64,000 nt of DNA from the sequence record OL451225.1; one strand, written 5' to 3'. The stretch is from Escherichia phage P896. Both the position numbers and the translations under genes were made by a program. Positions within the stretch are counted from its first letter, which is position 1; each line of letters starts with the position of its first letter. The notes under the pieces were generated by a model, which was not told the origin of the DNA, did no database searches, and saw only the letters and a program-made list of their open reading frames with translations. Below, one piece after another: positions 1 through 22,799 of this stretch.

Positions 1-1
1 A

Positions 2-64
2 CCAGTCTCCATGAAGCTCGCCATTAAGGTAGCCGAGACACAAACCATTGGGGTAGCAATCTAA
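2..64 (+). CDS. 9: C-terminal fragment of baseplate wedge protein gp9 (5' end outside window)
   Basis: Open frame ending ...LAIKVAETQTIGVAI, stop TAA overlapping the gene 10 ATG; position immediately upstream of gene 10 as in T4. Confidence 0.4.
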   Translation, partial: PVSMKLAIKVAETQTIGVAI

Positions 65-1875
65 TGAAACAAAATTTAAAAATAGGCGTGATGGTCGATG
101 ATGGTACCGGCGATTATCTTCGTCTCGGCGGCCAAAAAATTAATAACAACTTTGATGACCTTTACTACCAGCTCGGCGATGGGGAAAATCCTCATGCTGC
201 GGGTGCATGGAAAACATGGACCGTGGCCGACGGCACAACTCTGGAAGCTGTTATGGGTCGTAGCTATGCAGTGAATACCTCAAATGGTATGATTACTGTT
301 AAGCTCCCTAAAGGAACTCCGTCCGAATATAATTACGTTATCCGTTTGCGTGATGTGTTTGCAACCTGGCAAGTCTCCCCGGTGACGATTGTTCCGGCTG
401 TTGGTGACACAATGAAAGGTTCCCCTGACCCTGTTGTTATTCGTCGTAACCTGGCGGATATCGAACTGGTTTATTGCTCTCCTGGTCGTTGGGAATATAT
501 TGACAACAAACAGATTGACAAGATTTCGAATAATGACGTGGCAACTGTTGAGACCCAGCAATTCATCGCAACAGAAGGTCAAACGGACTTCCTGGATGTG
601 TTTAATGGTCGTCCTTATAACATTGCAAGCCTCGAAGTTAAACATCGTGGTAACGACCTGTTTTATGGCAAAGATGATATTTTCGACCCGGTGAATGCTG
701 AATTCGGTTCGCCTGGTGCTGCGCCTGGTGAAATTGTAACCCTTGACGGTCGCAACATTCGTTTACGTATGCCTTGCGCGGCTGGTGACACGGTTATTGT
801 TAGAACATTTAACGATGGTATTGCTCAGTATCGTAGTTCTTATAACCGTCGAGATGTTCAAATCCGTGATTCGAAATTTACTCTTGAAACCCCGGTCGAA
901 GGCTCTTTGGTTGTAGCTGATTTATCTACTAAACACACATTTATGGTTACTGAACTTGCGGTATCTCCAAGCAGTCCAATTAACCCGAATGCCTGTGAAG
1001 TTTATATTAACAGCATATTACAACACGAAGCAGGAACTGCAAACTATCCAGCTTATACCTGCGAAGGTGCTGATGGTGAAACTGCAGAAGAGTGTACAGA
1101 TAATGGTGGTCAATGGTCTAAATCAAAAGAAGACTATATAACAGCCTTTGATGAAGACAACCGTATTGAATCTTTTGAGTTTGCTCGCACATTTGAAGAT
1201 GGTGATATTCTGTCTATCGTTTGGTATAATAACGATATCGGCACCACAATGACTCTTGACGAAATTACAGATGAAACAAATAACATCTATGTTTCCCAAG
1301 GTCCAGAAGTTTCAATCACCGGCGATATAAGAATTACGGATTACGATAATCCATTTGCTCCTAACCTGGAACCGGTTGACCCAAGCGAAATTAAACCATC
1401 TGCTGTTTCGATTCTCTTTAATATGTTCCATCCAATTGGCACAATTTACGAGAACACGACTAACCCAAATAACCCTGCAACATATATGGGTATGGGAACA
1501 TGGAAGCGCCTTGAAGAGCGTGTTTTGATTGGTTGGTCTGCTGACCCGGCCTCGAACTTCCATACAAACAATAACGACCTGGATTCTTCTGGTGTTCCAC
1601 AGGCAACTGCTGGCGGAACTGGTGGTGATGTACAGATTCACATTAAACCAACCAATATTCCTAAAATTAAAACTGATGAAAAAGTATTGGTAGCTGATGC
1701 AACTGGTCCAATTATTGTTGGCGGCTGTCAGGTTGACCCGGATGCACAAGGTCCTGCTTATACAAACTATCGCGAAGATTATGCGACTATTAACGAAGCT
1801 CTTGACCCACTGGCACAGCCAATAAATACGCTTCCTCCATATTTGATTGTTTACCGTTGGGTAAGGATTGCATAA
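64..1875 (+). CDS. 10: baseplate wedge subunit and tail pin gp10
   Basis: 603 aa; N-terminus MKQNLKIGVMVDDGTGDYLR recognised as T4 gp10-like; T4 synteny. Confidence 0.9.
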   Translation: MKQNLKIGVMVDDGTGDYLRLGGQKINNNFDDLYYQLGDGENPHAAGAWKTWTVADGTTLEAVMGRSYAVNTSNGMITVKLPKGTPSEYNYVIRLRDVFATWQVSPVTIVPAVGDTMKGSPDPVVIRRNLADIELVYCSPGRWEYIDNKQIDKISNNDVATVETQQFIATEGQTDFLDVFNGRPYNIASLEVKHRGNDLFYGKDDIFDPVNAEFGSPGAAPGEIVTLDGRNIRLRMPCAAGDTVIVRTFNDGIAQYRSSYNRRDVQIRDSKFTLETPVEGSLVVADLSTKHTFMVTELAVSPSSPINPNACEVYINSILQHEAGTANYPAYTCEGADGETAEECTDNGGQWSKSKEDYITAFDEDNRIESFEFARTFEDGDILSIVWYNNDIGTTMTLDEITDETNNIYVSQGPEVSITGDIRITDYDNPFAPNLEPVDPSEIKPSAVSILFNMFHPIGTIYENTTNPNNPATYMGMGTWKRLEERVLIGWSADPASNFHTNNNDLDSSGVPQATAGGTGGDVQIHIKPTNIPKIKTDEKVLVADATGPIIVGGCQVDPDAQGPAYTNYREDYATINEALDPLAQPINTLPPYLIVYRWVRIA

Positions 1876-6652: not shown

Positions 6653-7437
6653 TGGCTACTTATGACTCAAGATTATTCGCCCGGCTCGAAGACGGGACCG
6701 GTTATGACAATACCAATGCTACAGAGATATTGAACCCTTATGTAAACTTTATGCATCATGAAAATACCCAGACTTTAGCTGATGCTATTGTTGCTGAAAG
6801 TATTCAGATGCGTGGGATGTCTCTCTATTATATCCCAAGACAATTCGTTAAACCAGATTTGTTATTTGGTGAAGACCTTCAGAGTAAATTTGATAAAGCG
6901 TGGAAATTTGCGGGCTATCTAGATACGTTCGATGCTTATCAGGGTGATGGTTCTATCTTTAGTAAATGGGGTATGTCTGTGAACGATGAAATTACAATAT
7001 CGATTAACCCTAACCTGTTTAAACACCAATGCAATGGAACTGAACCTATTGCCGGGGATTTGATTTATTTCCCTCTTGATAACAGCCTGTTCGAAATAAC
7101 CTGGGTACAACCTTATGACCCGTTCTATCAGGTAGGTCAAAACGCCATTCGTAAAATAACTGCGAGCAAATACATTTACTCCGGGGAAGAGCTTAAACCT
7201 GAATTACAACGAAATGAAGGTATTAATATTCCAGAATTCAGTGAGCTCGATTTGCAACCAATCCACAATATTGATGGCCTTACAGATATCAGCGATATCC
7301 CTTATGCAGAATCCGATGAGATTAACGCAGAAGCGGCTGAATATGTTAAACCATATTTTGTGCAGAATGGTCGTGGGCTTGAGGCTCCTCCTAAGGCAAA
7401 ACAGGATAGCTTTGACGATAGTTTCTTTGACGAATAA
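6652..7437 (+). CDS. 14: neck protein gp14
   Basis: 261 aa; T4 synteny; start overlaps the gene 13 stop. Confidence 0.85.
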
Positions 7438-17204: not shown

Positions 17205-18764
17205 ATGAAAAAGAATGCATTAGTTCAAAAATGGTCCGCTCTGTTGGAAAACGAAGCTCTTCCGGAAATCGTTGGTGCTTCTAAACAAGCTATCATCGCT
17301 AAAATCTTTGAAAACCAGGAACAAGATATCCTGACCGCTCCAGAATACCGTGACGAAAAAATCTCCGAAGCATTTGGTTCTTTCCTGACCGAAGCTGAAA
17401 TCGGTGGTGACCATGGTTATGATGCTACCAATATCGCTGCTGGCCAGACCTCTGGTGCAGTAACTCAGATTGGGCCAGCAGTTATGGGTATGGTTCGTCG
17501 TGCTATCCCGCATCTGATTGCGTTTGATATTTGTGGCGTACAGCCTCTGAACAACCCGACTGGCCAGGTATTTGCCCTGCGTGCAGTTTACGGTAAAGAC
17601 CCTGTCGCTGCTGGTGCTAAAGAAGCTTTCCACCCGATGTATGCTCCGAACGCTATGTTCTCCGGTCAGGGCGCTGCTCAGACTTTTGAAGCATTGGCTG
17701 CAGGCAAAGTTCTGGAAGTTGGTAAAATTTATTCTCACTTCTTCGAAGCAACCGGTTCCGCACACTACCAGGCTGTTGAAGCTGTAACCGTTGATGCTGG
17801 TGCTACTGATGCTGCTAAACTTGACGCTGAAGTTACCAAACTGCTCGAAGCTGGTCAGCTGGCAGAAATCGCTGAAGGTATGGCTACCTCCATCGCCGAA
17901 CTGCAAGAAGGTTTTAACGGTTCCCAGGATAACCCGTGGAACGAAATGGGCTTCCGCATCGACAAACAAGTTATCGAAGCTAAATCCCGTCAGCTGAAAG
18001 CAAGCTACTCCATCGAACTGGCACAGGACCTCCGCGCTGTTCACGGTATGGATGCTGATGCCGAATTGAGTGGTATTCTGGCTACCGAAATTATGCTGGA
18101 AATCAACCGCGAAGTTATCGATTGGATTAACTACTCCGCACAGGTTGGTAAATCTGGTATGACCAACACCGTTGGCGCTAAAGCTGGTGTGTTTGACTTC
18201 CAGGACCCGATTGATATCCGTGGTGCTCGTTGGGCTGGTGAAAGCTTCAAAGCTTTACTGTTCCAGATTGATAAAGAAGCCGCTGAAATCGCTCGTCAGA
18301 CCGGTCGTGGTGCAGGTAACTTCATCATCGCTTCCCGTAACGTAGTTAACGTGCTGGCTGCTGTTGATACTTCTGTTAGTTATGCTGCTCAGGGTCTGGG
18401 TAAAGGTTTCAACGTTGACACCACTAAAGCTGTGTTCGCTGGTGTTCTGGGTGGCAAATACCGTGTCTATATCGACCAGTATGCTCGTGCAGATTACTTC
18501 ACCATCGGTTACAAAGGCGCTAACGAAATGGATGCTGGTATCTACTACGCACCATATGTTGCACTGACCCCGCTGCGTGGCTCTGACCCGAAAAACTTCC
18601 AGCCGGTTATGGGCTTCAAAACCCGTTACGGTATCGGTATCAACCCGTTTGCTGACCCTGCTGCTCAGGCTCCGACCAAGCGCATTCAGAATGGTATGCC
18701 GGACATCGTTAATAGCCTCGGCTTGAACGGTTACTTCCGTCGCGTATATGTTAAAGGAATTTAA
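17205..18764 (+). CDS. 23: major capsid protein gp23
   Basis: 519 aa; size and position as T4 gp23; codon usage typical of a highly expressed gene. Confidence 0.95.
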   Translation: MKKNALVQKWSALLENEALPEIVGASKQAIIAKIFENQEQDILTAPEYRDEKISEAFGSFLTEAEIGGDHGYDATNIAAGQTSGAVTQIGPAVMGMVRRAIPHLIAFDICGVQPLNNPTGQVFALRAVYGKDPVAAGAKEAFHPMYAPNAMFSGQGAAQTFEALAAGKVLEVGKIYSHFFEATGSAHYQAVEAVTVDAGATDAAKLDAEVTKLLEAGQLAEIAEGMATSIAELQEGFNGSQDNPWNEMGFRIDKQVIEAKSRQLKASYSIELAQDLRAVHGMDADAELSGILATEIMLEINREVIDWINYSAQVGKSGMTNTVGAKAGVFDFQDPIDIRGARWAGESFKALLFQIDKEAAEIARQTGRGAGNFIIASRNVVNVLAAVDTSVSYAAQGLGKGFNVDTTKAVFAGVLGGKYRVYIDQYARADYFTIGYKGANEMDAGIYYAPYVALTPLRGSDPKNFQPVMGFKTRYGIGINPFADPAAQAPTKRIQNGMPDIVNSLGLNGYFRRVYVKGI

Positions 18765-18782: not shown

Positions 18783-18815
18783 AAAAAGGGACCCTTGAGG
18801 TCCCTTTCTTGTTTT
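18783..18815. terminator. bidirectional intrinsic terminator between gene 23 and the convergent orphan gene
   Basis: GGGACCcttgaGGTCCC hairpin (18788-18804) flanked by A and T tracts. Confidence 0.65.
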
Positions 18816-19096
18816 CATACCATACCATTTAAATGAACTTCTACCCGGCGCTTGATGAGGTCTCTGAAGTTAACATTGTTTTCTTGAAGTTTCAACCAGT
18901 TACCATTTTTATCTTTAGTGTGAGTAGAATAATTACCATTCCACCAGAAATCAGTGTCATATGCTAAGTTTTCATATTTTTTAACTAGTTTGTTCAGAGC
19001 ATTACCATTAACACCATTCGGGTATTTGTTGACCAATGCAATAACTTCAATTTCCAATTTTTTAAAGGTGTTCAGAAGGAAAGTTGATTTGTTCAT
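18815..19096 (-). CDS. hypothetical early protein (orphan gene between 23 and 24)
   Basis: 93-aa ORF with GGAG RBS, preceded by an early-promoter cassette and followed by a terminator; no family recognised. Confidence 0.6.
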   Translation of the reverse strand: MNKSTFLLNTFKKLEIEVIALVNKYPNGVNGNALNKLVKKYENLAYDTDFWWNGNYSTHTKDKNGNWLKLQENNVNFRDLIKRRVEVHLNGMV

Positions 19097-19166
19097 TTTA
19101 AACTCCAGGTTTTGTTTGTTAACTCAGTATGGAATCATTATGTCTTATCTTAATCTGGTTGTAAAC
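19097..19166 (-). repeat. early promoter + 5'UTR cassette, family A copy 1
   Basis: -35 GTTTAC (19161-19166), 18-bp spacer, -10 CATAAT (19137-19142), conserved leader TTCCATACTGAGTTAAC...CTGGAG; near-identical copies at 44425-44495 and 60143-60213. Confidence 0.6.
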
Positions 19167-19172
19167 AACTTT

Positions 19173-19180
19173 TATAAATA
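19173..19180 (+). promoter_or_regulatory. late promoter TATAAATA for gene 24
   Basis: Exact TATAAATA 27 nt upstream of the gene 24 ATG. Confidence 0.6.
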
Positions 19181-19206
19181 AAGTATATCACAAAAGGAAA
19201 GCGCAA

Positions 19207-20487
19207 ATGGCAAAGATTAACAAATTACTGCGCGAGTCAACTACCACTACCAGCAACTCCTTGGGCCGCCCGAATCTTGTTGCTTTGACCCGCGCTACAA
19301 CCAAATTGATTTACCGCGATATTATCGCTGAACAACGTACGAACCAGCCAGTTGCGGCTCTGTACGGTGTTAAATATCTTACCCCTGATAATGAATTCAG
19401 TTTCCAAACCGGTGCCGTTTATGGCGGTGAAGTTGGTTCTAAAGACCGTGAAACTATCCCGGAATTTACAACCCCAACTCAAGCCGTAGCTAAAGGTGGA
19501 TACATTAAATTCCAGAATATCGTTTATAAAGCTCTGGTTGATAATCCATTTGCATCGACTACCGAAACTGTATTATCCGATGTTCTGCAAGAAGGTCTTA
19601 TTGCATTAACTATTCGTTTGGTTCCTGATGCGGCGCACACCGAGAAATTTGAAGCCGGTGATGTTGAGATTAGTAATGCTGTATTCCAGGTCAACAAATG
19701 GAATGCTCCGGTTAAAACACGTAAATTGAAAACTGCATTAACTGTTGAGCTTGCTCAGGATATGGAAGCAAATGGTTTTAATGCTCCTGCTTTCTTGGAA
19801 GACTTGCTTGCCACTATTATGGCAGATGAAATTAACAAAGATGTTCTTCAGTCTCTTATTACCGTTTCCAAGCGTTATAAAGTAACTGGTGTTTCTGACA
19901 ATGGCGTCATCGATTTAACATATGATGCAGCTCCAGAAGGTGCACGTAAACTGTACGAACTGGTTTGCGAAATGAACTCCGAGATTCAGAAAACTACATC
20001 TTATTCCGGTACCTTTGTTGTTGCCTCTAGCCGTGTTGCTGCTATGTTGGCCGGTTCTGGTTGGCTGAAGCATAAACCTGAAGACGAACAATGGCTTCCT
20101 GAAACAGCGTACGGTTATTTGATTAATGGCCTCCCTGTATTCTGTGATGTTAACAGTCCATTGGATTATGTAACCGTTGGCGTTAAAGAAAATTACGGTG
20201 GAAACGAAGTCGTAGGCTCAATCTTCTATGCTCCTTATACCGAAGGTCTGGACTTAGATGATGAAGAGCATGTAGGCGCGTTTAAGGTCATTGTGGACCC
20301 TGACAGTTTGCAACCAGCTATCTCTCTGATGGTTCGTTATGCACTTTCAGCTAACCCGTACACCGTTGCTAAAGACGATAAAGAAGCTCGTATTATCGAT
20401 GCAACCAATATGGATTTAATGGCCGGTCAGAGCAATATGTCTTATCTGCTCGGTGTTAAACTTCCGCCAATCATTTATGAGGCGTAA
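19207..20487 (+). CDS. 24: capsid vertex protein gp24
   Basis: 426 aa; N-terminus MAKINKLLRESTTTTSNSLGRPNLVALTRATTKLIY recognised as T4 gp24-like. Confidence 0.9.
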   Translation: MAKINKLLRESTTTTSNSLGRPNLVALTRATTKLIYRDIIAEQRTNQPVAALYGVKYLTPDNEFSFQTGAVYGGEVGSKDRETIPEFTTPTQAVAKGGYIKFQNIVYKALVDNPFASTTETVLSDVLQEGLIALTIRLVPDAAHTEKFEAGDVEISNAVFQVNKWNAPVKTRKLKTALTVELAQDMEANGFNAPAFLEDLLATIMADEINKDVLQSLITVSKRYKVTGVSDNGVIDLTYDAAPEGARKLYELVCEMNSEIQKTTSYSGTFVVASSRVAAMLAGSGWLKHKPEDEQWLPETAYGYLINGLPVFCDVNSPLDYVTVGVKENYGGNEVVGSIFYAPYTEGLDLDDEEHVGAFKVIVDPDSLQPAISLMVRYALSANPYTVAKDDKEARIIDATNMDLMAGQSNMSYLLGVKLPPIIYEA

Positions 20488-21771
20488 ATGCAAAAGATTA
20501 ACGCACTAATTCACGAATCAACATTAACGGCGGCCAACCAGGTCGCCCGTCCTAATTTGCTTTCTTATACTCAGGCTACGAATAAACGAATTTTTAAAGC
20601 ACTCGTTGCTGAACAGAAAACTACCCAGCCTGTTGCGGCGCTGTATGGTGTTCGCGTTCTTAACCCAGATGATAAAATGACTTATCTTGGCGGAGCAACA
20701 TTTGCAGGCCAGATTGGTATGTTCGAGCGTAAGAATATTCCAGAATTTACGAACAAAGACGAAGCTTATGCAGTCGGCGATATGTTCCAGTTTGAAAGTG
20801 TTGTGTTCAAAGTTTTGGAAGCATCACCATTCGCCGGGACTCTCGAAACTGATTTGGGCGAAGTTATTTCTGAAGCCATTGCGGCTGGCCATATAAGAAT
20901 GATGTCAGATGCGGCTTTCACTGATAAATTTGAAAAAGGTCATCCTGAAATTGCTGAAGCTGGTTTTCGTATTGATAAATGGCAGACTGAAGTTAAATCC
21001 AGAAAGCTGAAAACTTCTTTAACTGTCGAGCTTGCTCAAGACCTGGAAGCGAACGGTTTCGATGCAACGGATTTCATTGATAATATTCTCGGTATCCAAA
21101 TGGCAGAGGAAATTAATAAGGATGTACTGCAATCCCTTATTACTGTCAGTTCTCGCTTCAAGGTGCAAGGTGTTTCTGAAAAAGGTGTATTGAATCTAAC
21201 TGACCCGAAATATGATAACGCTCAGGACCGTGCGCGAACCCTGTATTATTATATGTGTGAAATGAACTCCGCAGTTCAACGTCAGACTTCGTTTGCTGGT
21301 ACATATGCAGTCGCTTCTTCCCGGTGTGCAGCTATTTTAGCAGCTTCTGGCTGGGTTGAGAAAAAGGAAGACCAGGATGAATTAGCCTATGGCGTTCTGA
21401 AGAACGGTTTACCACTTTATGCAGATATGAATAGTCCATGTGATTATGTTATTGTTGGTGTAAATGCTGATATGGGTGAAGGTCAGACGGTCGCATCTTT
21501 GTATTATGCGCCTTATACGGAAGGACTTAGTGAAGTTGATGATGAGGGTGATACCTCGGTCGGGGAATTCAAGGTTATTGTTGACCCTGAAAGCTTGCAG
21601 CCTACTGTTGCGCTATTAGCTCGTTATGCATTGACAGCAAACCCTTATACGGTTGCGAAAGATGATAAAGAAGCTCGCATTATTGATGGTGCTGATATGG
21701 ATAAGATGGCCAACCAAAGCCAATTGAGTTCTTATCTTGGTGTTAAACTTCCACCACTGGAAAAAGAATAA
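20488..21771 (+). CDS. second gp24-like capsid vertex protein (tandem paralog)
   Basis: 427 aa; by eye roughly half identical to the preceding gp24 (shared TQPVAALYGV, SRKLKT, LTVELAQD, EINKDVLQSLITVS, ANPYTVAKDDKEARIID motifs). Confidence 0.85.
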   Translation: MQKINALIHESTLTAANQVARPNLLSYTQATNKRIFKALVAEQKTTQPVAALYGVRVLNPDDKMTYLGGATFAGQIGMFERKNIPEFTNKDEAYAVGDMFQFESVVFKVLEASPFAGTLETDLGEVISEAIAAGHIRMMSDAAFTDKFEKGHPEIAEAGFRIDKWQTEVKSRKLKTSLTVELAQDLEANGFDATDFIDNILGIQMAEEINKDVLQSLITVSSRFKVQGVSEKGVLNLTDPKYDNAQDRARTLYYYMCEMNSAVQRQTSFAGTYAVASSRCAAILAASGWVEKKEDQDELAYGVLKNGLPLYADMNSPCDYVIVGVNADMGEGQTVASLYYAPYTEGLSEVDDEGDTSVGEFKVIVDPESLQPTVALLARYALTANPYTVAKDDKEARIIDGADMDKMANQSQLSSYLGVKLPPLEKE

Positions 21772-21793
21772 GGGCCGCAAGGCCCTTTTTTTT
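21772..21793. terminator. bidirectional terminator between the 24 paralog and rnlB
   Basis: GGGCCgcaaGGCCC hairpin followed by T8. Confidence 0.65.
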
Positions 21794-22799
21794 ATTCACT
21801 AACTAATGCAATCCAAACATGTCTTAATGTTTCTCTTACATTTGCGATGAGTTGCTTTTTAACTTCAACAGGATTTTCCGTCAGGGTCAATTCAAGACCT
21901 TCGCGACCGGCTTCTTCCAGAATATCTTGGACTGTTAGCCCCATTACCTTTCCAAAATCCTTCGGTGATACTTCACCAATCTTACTGATAACATTATTGA
22001 TGCGGTTAACAGTCACATAATCAGTGAAATTCCACAGCAAATCCATATCATTTTGGCTCAGAACCACTGCAGCCTTAATAGGCTTATCAGACTTTTTCTT
22101 TTCACTGAATTTAGAGTTCTTACATTTAATCGCTACACGCTCGCCGTTAGGCAACCAGGCCGGAACATCAGGTTTTAATACAAATCCTTCGGCAGTGAAT
22201 ACTTTACCTTCCACCTTTGCATCAAAATCAGTGGTATTTGCTGTAGTCAAACCTGCGTTATCCACTGTAAAATTGTAATCAGGGACAACAGAATCCAGGT
22301 CATTAGGGAGCTTAATTAATTCTTCAAAACTACCTGTAGCCAGGCGCGGCGCAACCTTAAACTTATGGATAATACAGAATGCTTCCATAAGGGTGTCAGT
22401 CAGGACGGATTCAAAACCATCTTCTTTAGTAACGCGGATATCAAATACATAAAAATCTTTATCACCGTAATCCACATTCTTCTGGATACCTGCCCCGGCA
22501 AACTCACCATAAATCTGATATGCCTGGTAATTAATATCCTGCAAAAGTTTCTGCACAGATTTAATAGAATCTGCATAGTTCTTTAATACAATTTCATAAC
22601 CATAGAAATCTTCTGCAGGTAGGATAGGTCCAGTGCGTTTCGCACATGTCACATTGTCTTGTTCAATGATTAATGAAAAGTTGGTGCCATGAATCTTTTC
22701 ACGCGCTACCCATTCACCGCTGGTGAAGCCTTGCAGGCGAATCTTTTCAATGAACTTGTTGTTATAGTGATTTTCAAGGCTGTTGTATTTCTTAAACAT
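21792..22799 (-). CDS. rnlB: RNA ligase 2 (RnlB)
   Basis: 335 aa; [19 protein letters not shown]...[13 protein letters not shown] adenylylation lysine motif; size as T4 Rnl2. Confidence 0.9.

Follow-up and report, generated by a model that had tools for sequence, protein, structure and literature searches.

The gap between genes 23 and 24 of T-even phages appears, from comparison of sequences, to be a conserved slot made up of an early promoter, a cargo and a common terminator. The cargo differs from phage to phage: the slot holds nothing, a gene of the phrog_6003 family, a SegD-like gene, or both. In Escherichia phage P896 it holds a gene for a protein of 93 amino acids. Sequence conservation points to a real gene here rather than a chance open reading frame (ORF). 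The family is already catalogued and is labelled hypothetical in hundreds of genomes, and the 93-aa gene is an ordinary accessory gene. The informative part is not the gene itself but the slot that it has in common with SegD-family genes, together with the replacement of one allele by another across genera.

Locus and gene order

The window is the whole stretch of DNA that was analysed, 64,000 nucleotides from phage P896 (sequence record OL451225.1). The closest record to it is that of phage PSD2001 (98.8% over a 1-kb test region), a Gaprivervirus coliphage of the T4-like Straboviridae. A first-pass annotation, made from the sequence alone, had reported an antisense ORF of 93 codons between genes 23 and 24, and this ORF is indeed present. 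The gene order is as follows.

17205-18764, plus strand: gene 23, major capsid protein
18815-19096, minus strand: 93-aa ORF, phrog_6003 family, ATG start, between gene 23 and gene 24 copy 1
19207-20487, plus strand: gene 24, copy 1
20488-21771, plus strand: gene 24, copy 2
21792-22799, minus strand: rnlB

Gene 24, which encodes the vertex protein, is thus present in the window as two tandem paralogues with abutting reading frames. Two copies are also found in JS98 (24a/24b), VR7 and Melville, and one copy in Mosigvirus, T4 and T2.

The GC content of the 93-aa gene is 33%, against 34-43% in the other small early genes of the window. Measured against those genes, its base composition does not clearly mark it as foreign.

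The phrog_6003 family

The 93-aa protein is a full-length match to phrog_6003 of PHROGs v4 (E=2.2e-46, with residues 1-90 aligned to the whole profile of 90 positions), and the phrog_6003 HMM is also matched by all 12 aligned relatives. Named members include JS98 orf173, VR7ORF190c and Shf125875 gp230, which match the P896 protein in length. A homologue is found by tblastn in 237 phage records, 203 of them from Escherichia and 16 from Shigella phages. Identity to the P896 protein is 91-100% within Gaprivervirus, 62% in Dhakavirus (JS98 orf173) and 35% in Mosigvirus (Shf125875 gp230). These three genera have the antisense position between genes 23 and 24 in common; it is seen in PSD2001, JS98, Shf125875, VR7, VR26, CJ20 and one metagenomic contig. 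The gene is not found in most T4-like genera, and in T4 segD stands in its place.

Outside the T4-like phages, family members occur in arrays of small genes, as in Acinetobacter phage ABPH49. Another member lies in an unclassified metagenomic phage contig, whose only megablast matches are stretches of about 80-90 bp in records of Erwinia and Salmonella phages, and a further one in a contig whose tail-tip gene resembles those of Serratia siphoviruses. Since HMMER, run exhaustively on 1.84 billion representatives, found only about seven true phrog_6003 clusters, comparative inference about the family is thin. A family HMM search among all ORFs of the window found no paralogue.

One strong match to the family HMM was rejected as spurious. 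It is a large bacterial protein (P0015, 1347 aa, E=4e-18) in which nine stretches are matched, all within repeats, and only a D-x-N-G hairpin motif is involved. The motif, W-x-S-S-D...V-D-x-N-G-x-V, is repeated nine times, and by eye the repeats look like Ig repeats of the Big_2 type. A second large protein (P0018, 3916 aa, E=5e-6) is matched in several stretches as well.

Within Gaprivervirus the 93-aa gene has a dN/dS ratio (Nei-Gojobori method) of 0.19-0.27, and in the comparison with JS98 the ratio is about 0.1; the gene is under purifying selection. Its dN exceeds that of genes 23 and 24 by a factor of 5-20. Within the genus, pS is 0.16-0.19 in the 93-aa gene and 0.18-0.36 in gene 24; the corresponding values are 0.75 and 0.60 in the comparison with JS98, and 0.72 and 0.75 in that with Mosigvirus. 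Because synonymous divergence tracks that of gene 24, the data fit a mostly vertical descent of the gene together with its flanks.

Promoters and terminator

The control signals around the gene are listed below.

About 18783..18809, both strands: bidirectional intrinsic terminator, GGGACC/GGTCCC hairpin with T-runs on both strands
19103..19106, minus strand: Shine-Dalgarno sequence GGAG, 6 nt 5' of the ATG
19137..19166, minus strand: T4-type early (sigma-70) promoter, GTTTACA - 17 nt - CATAAT, with 10 of 12 consensus matches
19142-19137, minus strand: -10 hexamer CATAAT, 17-nt spacer from the -35 hexamer
19165-19160, minus strand: -35 hexamer TTTACA, with a G in front of it at 19166 (GTTTACA)
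19174..19181, plus strand: gene 24 late promoter TATAAATA, read from the sequence

A strong bidirectional terminator had been proposed downstream of the ORF, and folding bears this out. The GC-rich hairpin has a folding energy of -17.0 kcal/mol (z-score -3.8) on the minus strand and -15.9 kcal/mol (z-score -3.5) on the plus strand. The hairpin (18783-18809) is common to late gene 23 on the plus strand and the early 93-aa gene on the minus strand. An equivalent hairpin is found in the same place in JS98, Shf125875, T4, T2 and Melville.

At the other end of the gene, TATAAATA is presumably a late promoter, an assignment that we take from the established T4 late-promoter consensus. It lies 7 bp from the -35 element of the early promoter, so that the two promoters are arranged back to back. 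It is kept in all aligned phages, including those in which the gap is empty.

The early promoter is preceded by TTTATTTATAAAAGTT, so that the A/T-rich upstream stretch of a T4-type early promoter is present as well. The -10 element, CATAAT, lacks a TGn extension. A generic sigma-70 scan of this A/T-rich stretch is not above chance, with 2 sites against 2.2 expected in shuffled sequences. The T4-type early pattern, scanned as GTTTAC-N17-19-(T/C/G)A(T/C)(A/T)AT, is enriched: the window has 6 occurrences, against 0.66 +/- 0.79 in shuffles, and 6/6 are on the minus strand. The five other GTTTAC-type candidates, at 44495-44466, 35574, 44051, 48096 and 60904, lie in the early-gene half of the window.

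One of these sites resembles the promoter of the 93-aa gene more closely. The site at 44495-44466 (minus strand) and the 93-aa gene promoter have in common CATAATGATTCCAT, which comprises the -10 element and a downstream block, and the larger arrangement GTTTACAAC...CATAATGATTCCAT is likewise found at both. The repeated early promoter cassette recognised in the first-pass annotation is therefore a real family, since the T4-type motif is enriched and the CATAATGATTCCAT block recurs at 44495-44466.

The gap between genes 23 and 24 as an expression slot

An alignment was made of the stretch between the start codon of gene 24 and the ATG of the cargo. Five T4-like genomes and a metagenomic contig have one and the same layout ahead of the ORF, and T4 segD is preceded by it as well. 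It consists of the late promoter complement TATTTATA, a few bases, (G/A)TTTACA, a 17-nt spacer, TAnnAT, GGAG and the ATG. The early promoter layout is kept in VR7, JS98, Shf125875 and RB69 and ahead of T4 segD, and the Shine-Dalgarno sequence is also retained in the alignment. A TGn extension of the -10 element is present in JS98, the Mosigviruses and T4.

As had been noted, T4 carries segD at this very position, in the gap between genes 23 and 24 and on the same strand. It has the same intergenic slot, antisense orientation and terminator position as the 93-aa gene. Upstream of T4 segD and the SegD-like genes, the late promoter abuts (A/G)TTTACA, followed after 17 nt by TAnnAT and then by GGAG, an arrangement colinear with that of the 93-aa gene. 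In T4 (NC_000866), the stretch upstream of segD, at about 7233-7300 on the minus strand, carries ATTTACA-17-(TGa)TATTAT and GGAG. A SegD-like gene stands alone behind GTTTACA-17-TA(A/T)AAT in the Gelderlandvirus CGG4-1 and in Yersinia phage MHG19. The proteins encoded in this common frame are unrelated: the SegD-like protein has about 220 aa with GIY-YIG and HTH domains, whereas the phrog_6003 protein has 93 aa and a predicted helix-hairpin fold.

According to a review from 2010, a promoter could not be found for segD, whose transcripts are probably very scarce (PMC2988022). In the supplement of a T4 multi-omics time course, segD RNA is early, the protein belongs to the middle class, and SegD protein is detected and rising (PMC9697503). 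Because segD RNA is classed as early, the promoter of the slot is probably active in T4 and, by homology, so is the better-matching promoter in the window. These comparisons suggest that, contrary to the 2010 review, T4 segD does have a promoter. The slot model also accounts for the odd antisense orientation of segD.

In some phages the gap is empty. T2, Melville, Moon, VAC36 and PG7 have only 80-96 bp, which contain the terminator and the late promoter. In the Gelderlandvirus Melville (1405-1500), TTGTTTTACA is retained beside the late promoter and the terminator follows directly. This arrangement would fit the scar of a cargo deletion. CGG4-1, a relative of Melville, has its SegD-like gene where the gap of Melville is empty.

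In RB69 (NC_004928, 7292-7532, minus strand), the gene is a Mosigvirus allele that is broken by two 1-bp indels relative to Shf125875, at 97% DNA identity. The pieces are annotated as two tiny ORFs, RB69ORF188c and RB69ORF189c. The split gene is either a pseudogene or the product of sequencing errors in the 2003 record. Because of the empty gaps and the broken RB69 copy, the 93-aa gene is dispensable, at least in some hosts. The slot may also be of practical use, as a possible safe insertion site in phage engineering.

The locus had been described as a self-contained early gene that was inserted among the head genes. The words self-contained and early hold at the level of the sequence, and T4 segD, behind a homologous promoter, has RNA that is classed as early. 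The word inserted has to be taken with a reservation. The 93-aa gene is a long-term resident whose synonymous divergence follows that of gene 24 across three genera. In several further genera the gap is empty and measures 80-96 bp.

Still another kind of gene is seen beside gene 24 in the Yersinia phage phiR1-RT, where an antisense gene of about 504 codons (1-1418, minus strand) lies directly upstream of it. The protein has a weak, sub-threshold match to the PD-(D/E)XK-type domain REase_MTES_1575 (E=5e-4, scoring 20 bits where the cut-off is 38), and the gene may encode another kind of endonuclease.

Predicted protein

The AlphaFold2 model of the 93-aa protein, built from a 10-sequence alignment, has a pLDDT of 90.7 and a pTM of 0.75. 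The predicted topology is a helix (3-24), a second helix (31-48), a beta-hairpin (52-71) and a third helix (77-91). The BFVD model of the Acinetobacter-phage homologue, which is 31% identical, has the same fold (TM 0.85-0.90).

Beyond this, nothing matches convincingly. Foldseek with the model gives nothing below E=2 in the PDB and only the family member in BFVD. A sequence-profile search of the PDB gives nothing usable, the best match being a designed coiled coil (E=0.005). Pfam has no domain for the protein even at E<=10, and NCBIfam and Pfam together give no match to HNH or an enzyme family for the ORF or its 12 relatives. A confident model without a solved analogue makes the protein a reasonable target for functional screens.

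Seven residues are invariant in 12/12 members of the family: M1, K3, F6, G31, N32, N35 and Q71. L14, L21, N30, A45 and S57 are nearly so. The invariant G-N-x-x-N motif caps helix 2 in the model and is extended to N-G-N-x-x-N in 11/12 members. Inspection of the 12-member alignment revealed no catalytic motif.

The protein has a pI of 9.56, and the pI is 9.2-9.9 in 11/12 family members. Because K3 is the sole conserved basic residue, this basicity may be compositional rather than the mark of a nucleic-acid-binding surface.

Possible role

On balance, the 93-aa ORF is best regarded as a genuine, independently transcribed early accessory gene that probably encodes a dispensable, basic binding protein acting early. 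Unmodified host RNA polymerase would start from GTTTACA-17-CATAAT at about position 19130, to judge from the sequence and the homology with the slot of T4, and would produce a monocistronic mRNA of about 350 nt ending at the hairpin that also terminates gene 23. Once the phage has reprogrammed the polymerase, the early promoter would fall silent. The abutting late promoter TATAAATA would then fire the other way, into gene 24.

The product would be a small, basic (pI 9.6), soluble and non-enzymatic protein. It would act early in infection by binding to a macromolecule of the host or the phage, whether for taking over the host, for regulation or for counter-defence. The positive charge is consistent within the family, which makes nucleic acid a plausible ligand.

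Proteins of this general kind are familiar from the T-even phages. Small early proteins directed at the host, such as AsiA, Arn, MotB and Ndd, are non-essential and rapidly evolving, act by binding rather than by catalysis, and are expressed from early promoters of the sigma-70 type. The likeness is one of kind only, and the database searches suggest no similarity to any of them.

A more specific version of this explanation, which is a subset of it and does not contradict it, would make the protein an anti-defence or host-takeover effector for Escherichia coli or Shigella hosts, for example an inhibitor of an immune or housekeeping protein. Such a role is plausible because of the early timing, the fast evolution of the protein, its dispensability and its near-restriction to coliphages. 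The gene has an early promoter, encodes a small protein with a dN well above that of its neighbours, and is patchily distributed; within the T4-like group it is found almost exclusively in coliphages, as the host counts given above indicate. In other phages it lies within arrays of small early or moron-type genes. Against this, the PADLOC-DB collection of defence and anti-defence families gives no match for the ORF or its Mosigvirus homologue, and two distant relatives match at chance level. Foldseek provides no structural analogue in the PDB or BFVD, and a literature search on the locus names and the PHROG identifier found nothing on phrog_6003. The effector role is accordingly possible but doubtful.

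A bolder proposal goes beyond the broad early-binding role and is unlikely as it stands. It would see in phrog_6003 a structurally new class of early effector, used by the T-even phages of E. coli against a host factor or defence, with SegD endonucleases shuttling its alleles between genera by way of the slot.

Probable transfer of an allele together with an endonuclease gene

LF82-31 and JK45 provide a clean natural example of a homing endonuclease that would have carried a neighbouring allele across genus boundaries. In both (1231-2160 each), Mosigvirus flanks enclose a Dhakavirus allele of the ORF and a SegD-like GIY-YIG gene. The parts compared with Shf125875 are 98-100% identical in gene 23 and 98-99% in gene 24. 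The ORF shares 93% identity with that of JS98 and no more than 31-32% with the Mosigvirus allele. The record of JK45 places it in Tequatrovirus, despite gene 23 and 24 parts that are 98-99% identical to those of the Mosigvirus Shf125875.

In a three-way DNA alignment, the left switch from Mosigvirus-like to Dhakavirus-like sequence lies at the Shine-Dalgarno sequence, and the right switch just beyond the terminator. The insertion point of the endonuclease gene falls exactly between the stop codon of the ORF and the terminator. Dhakaviruses IME08 and IME341 have an endonuclease gene that is 88% identical, and in IME341 the ORF is about 10 nt away by coordinates. Phages of these two types are plausible donors. 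The endonuclease of the LF82 type is found at >=95% identity in at least 33 records.

In these two recombinants, which were analysed closely, the Dhakavirus allele and the endonuclease gene have taken the place of the Mosigvirus allele, a pattern that fits co-conversion during homing. Where ORF and endonuclease gene coexist, the ORF allele could move between phages in this way.

It might be supposed from these phages that the ORF is tied to SegD homing itself, as a landing pad or recognition region, a helper or an immunity factor, and that it persists by hitch-hiking. The exact placement of the SegD-like gene within one transcription unit with the ORF, the allele replacement in LF82-31 and JK45, and the frequency of the endonuclease in the records all speak for such a tie. 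The two genes also occur apart. Among the records examined, the gap holds the ORF without an endonuclease gene in the window, PSD2001, CJ20, VR26, VR7, JS98 and Shf125875, and SegD-like genes lack the ORF in T4, CGG4-1 and MHG19. Family members are also found in phages without a nearby Seg gene, and purifying selection implies that the protein has a function of its own. A tie to homing is thus quite improbable.

Two explanations had been offered for the ORF in the first-pass annotation, a degraded endonuclease remnant or a different cargo gene. The second is the right one: the ORF is a member of phrog_6003 and unrelated to SegD. A remnant of a Seg-type homing endonuclease, such as its C-terminal DNA-binding domain, is suggested by the gap, strand and promoter/terminator frame common to the ORF and T4 segD, and the ORF is of a size that a single domain could have. 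Homology to that C-terminal domain was looked for and not found. BLASTP of the 93-aa protein against T4 SegD gives E=3.2, and hhalign of the family profile against SegD gives a probability of 0.7%. SegD and the LF82 endonuclease match Pfam SegE_GIY-YIG, GIY-YIG and HTH_17, but the ORF has no GIY-YIG, HNH or HTH match in Pfam at E<=10, in agreement with the earlier reading that no GIY-YIG or HNH motif was visible.

A stronger argument than the missing homology is that both genes can be present and intact. In LF82-31 and JK45, an intact SegD-like gene begins 3 nt beyond the intact ORF, on the same strand. The same tandem is indicated by adjacent coordinates in KAW3E185, ATK48, NRG-P0074, vB_EcoM_005, JM10 and Dhakavirus IME341. 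Homologues of the ORF moreover occur in unrelated phages in non-endonuclease contexts, and the gene is under purifying selection. The missing homology and the intact coexistence refute the remnant explanation, to which we give hardly any weight.

Even less credible is a lysozyme fragment of glycosyl hydrolase family 25 (GH25), the label given to the orthologue of the 93-aa ORF in the EAWsc9 record (PQ341120.1, 516-797): no domain search backs the label, with no Pfam match at E<=10 and 0/12 family members matching GH25, every other annotated record examined says hypothetical protein, and 93 aa is far shorter than a GH25 catalytic domain of about 180-200 aa.

Other reading frames at the locus

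Two further ORFs lie at or near the 93-aa gene. One, of 274 codons (17220-18044, minus strand), is antisense within gene 23 and is probably an artefact of codon bias in a highly expressed gene. The other, of 75 codons with a GTG start (18954-19181, plus strand), overlaps the 93-aa ORF. One relative has a small plus-strand ORF annotated, which is a different one. The observed purifying selection fits the minus-strand frame of the 93-aa gene.
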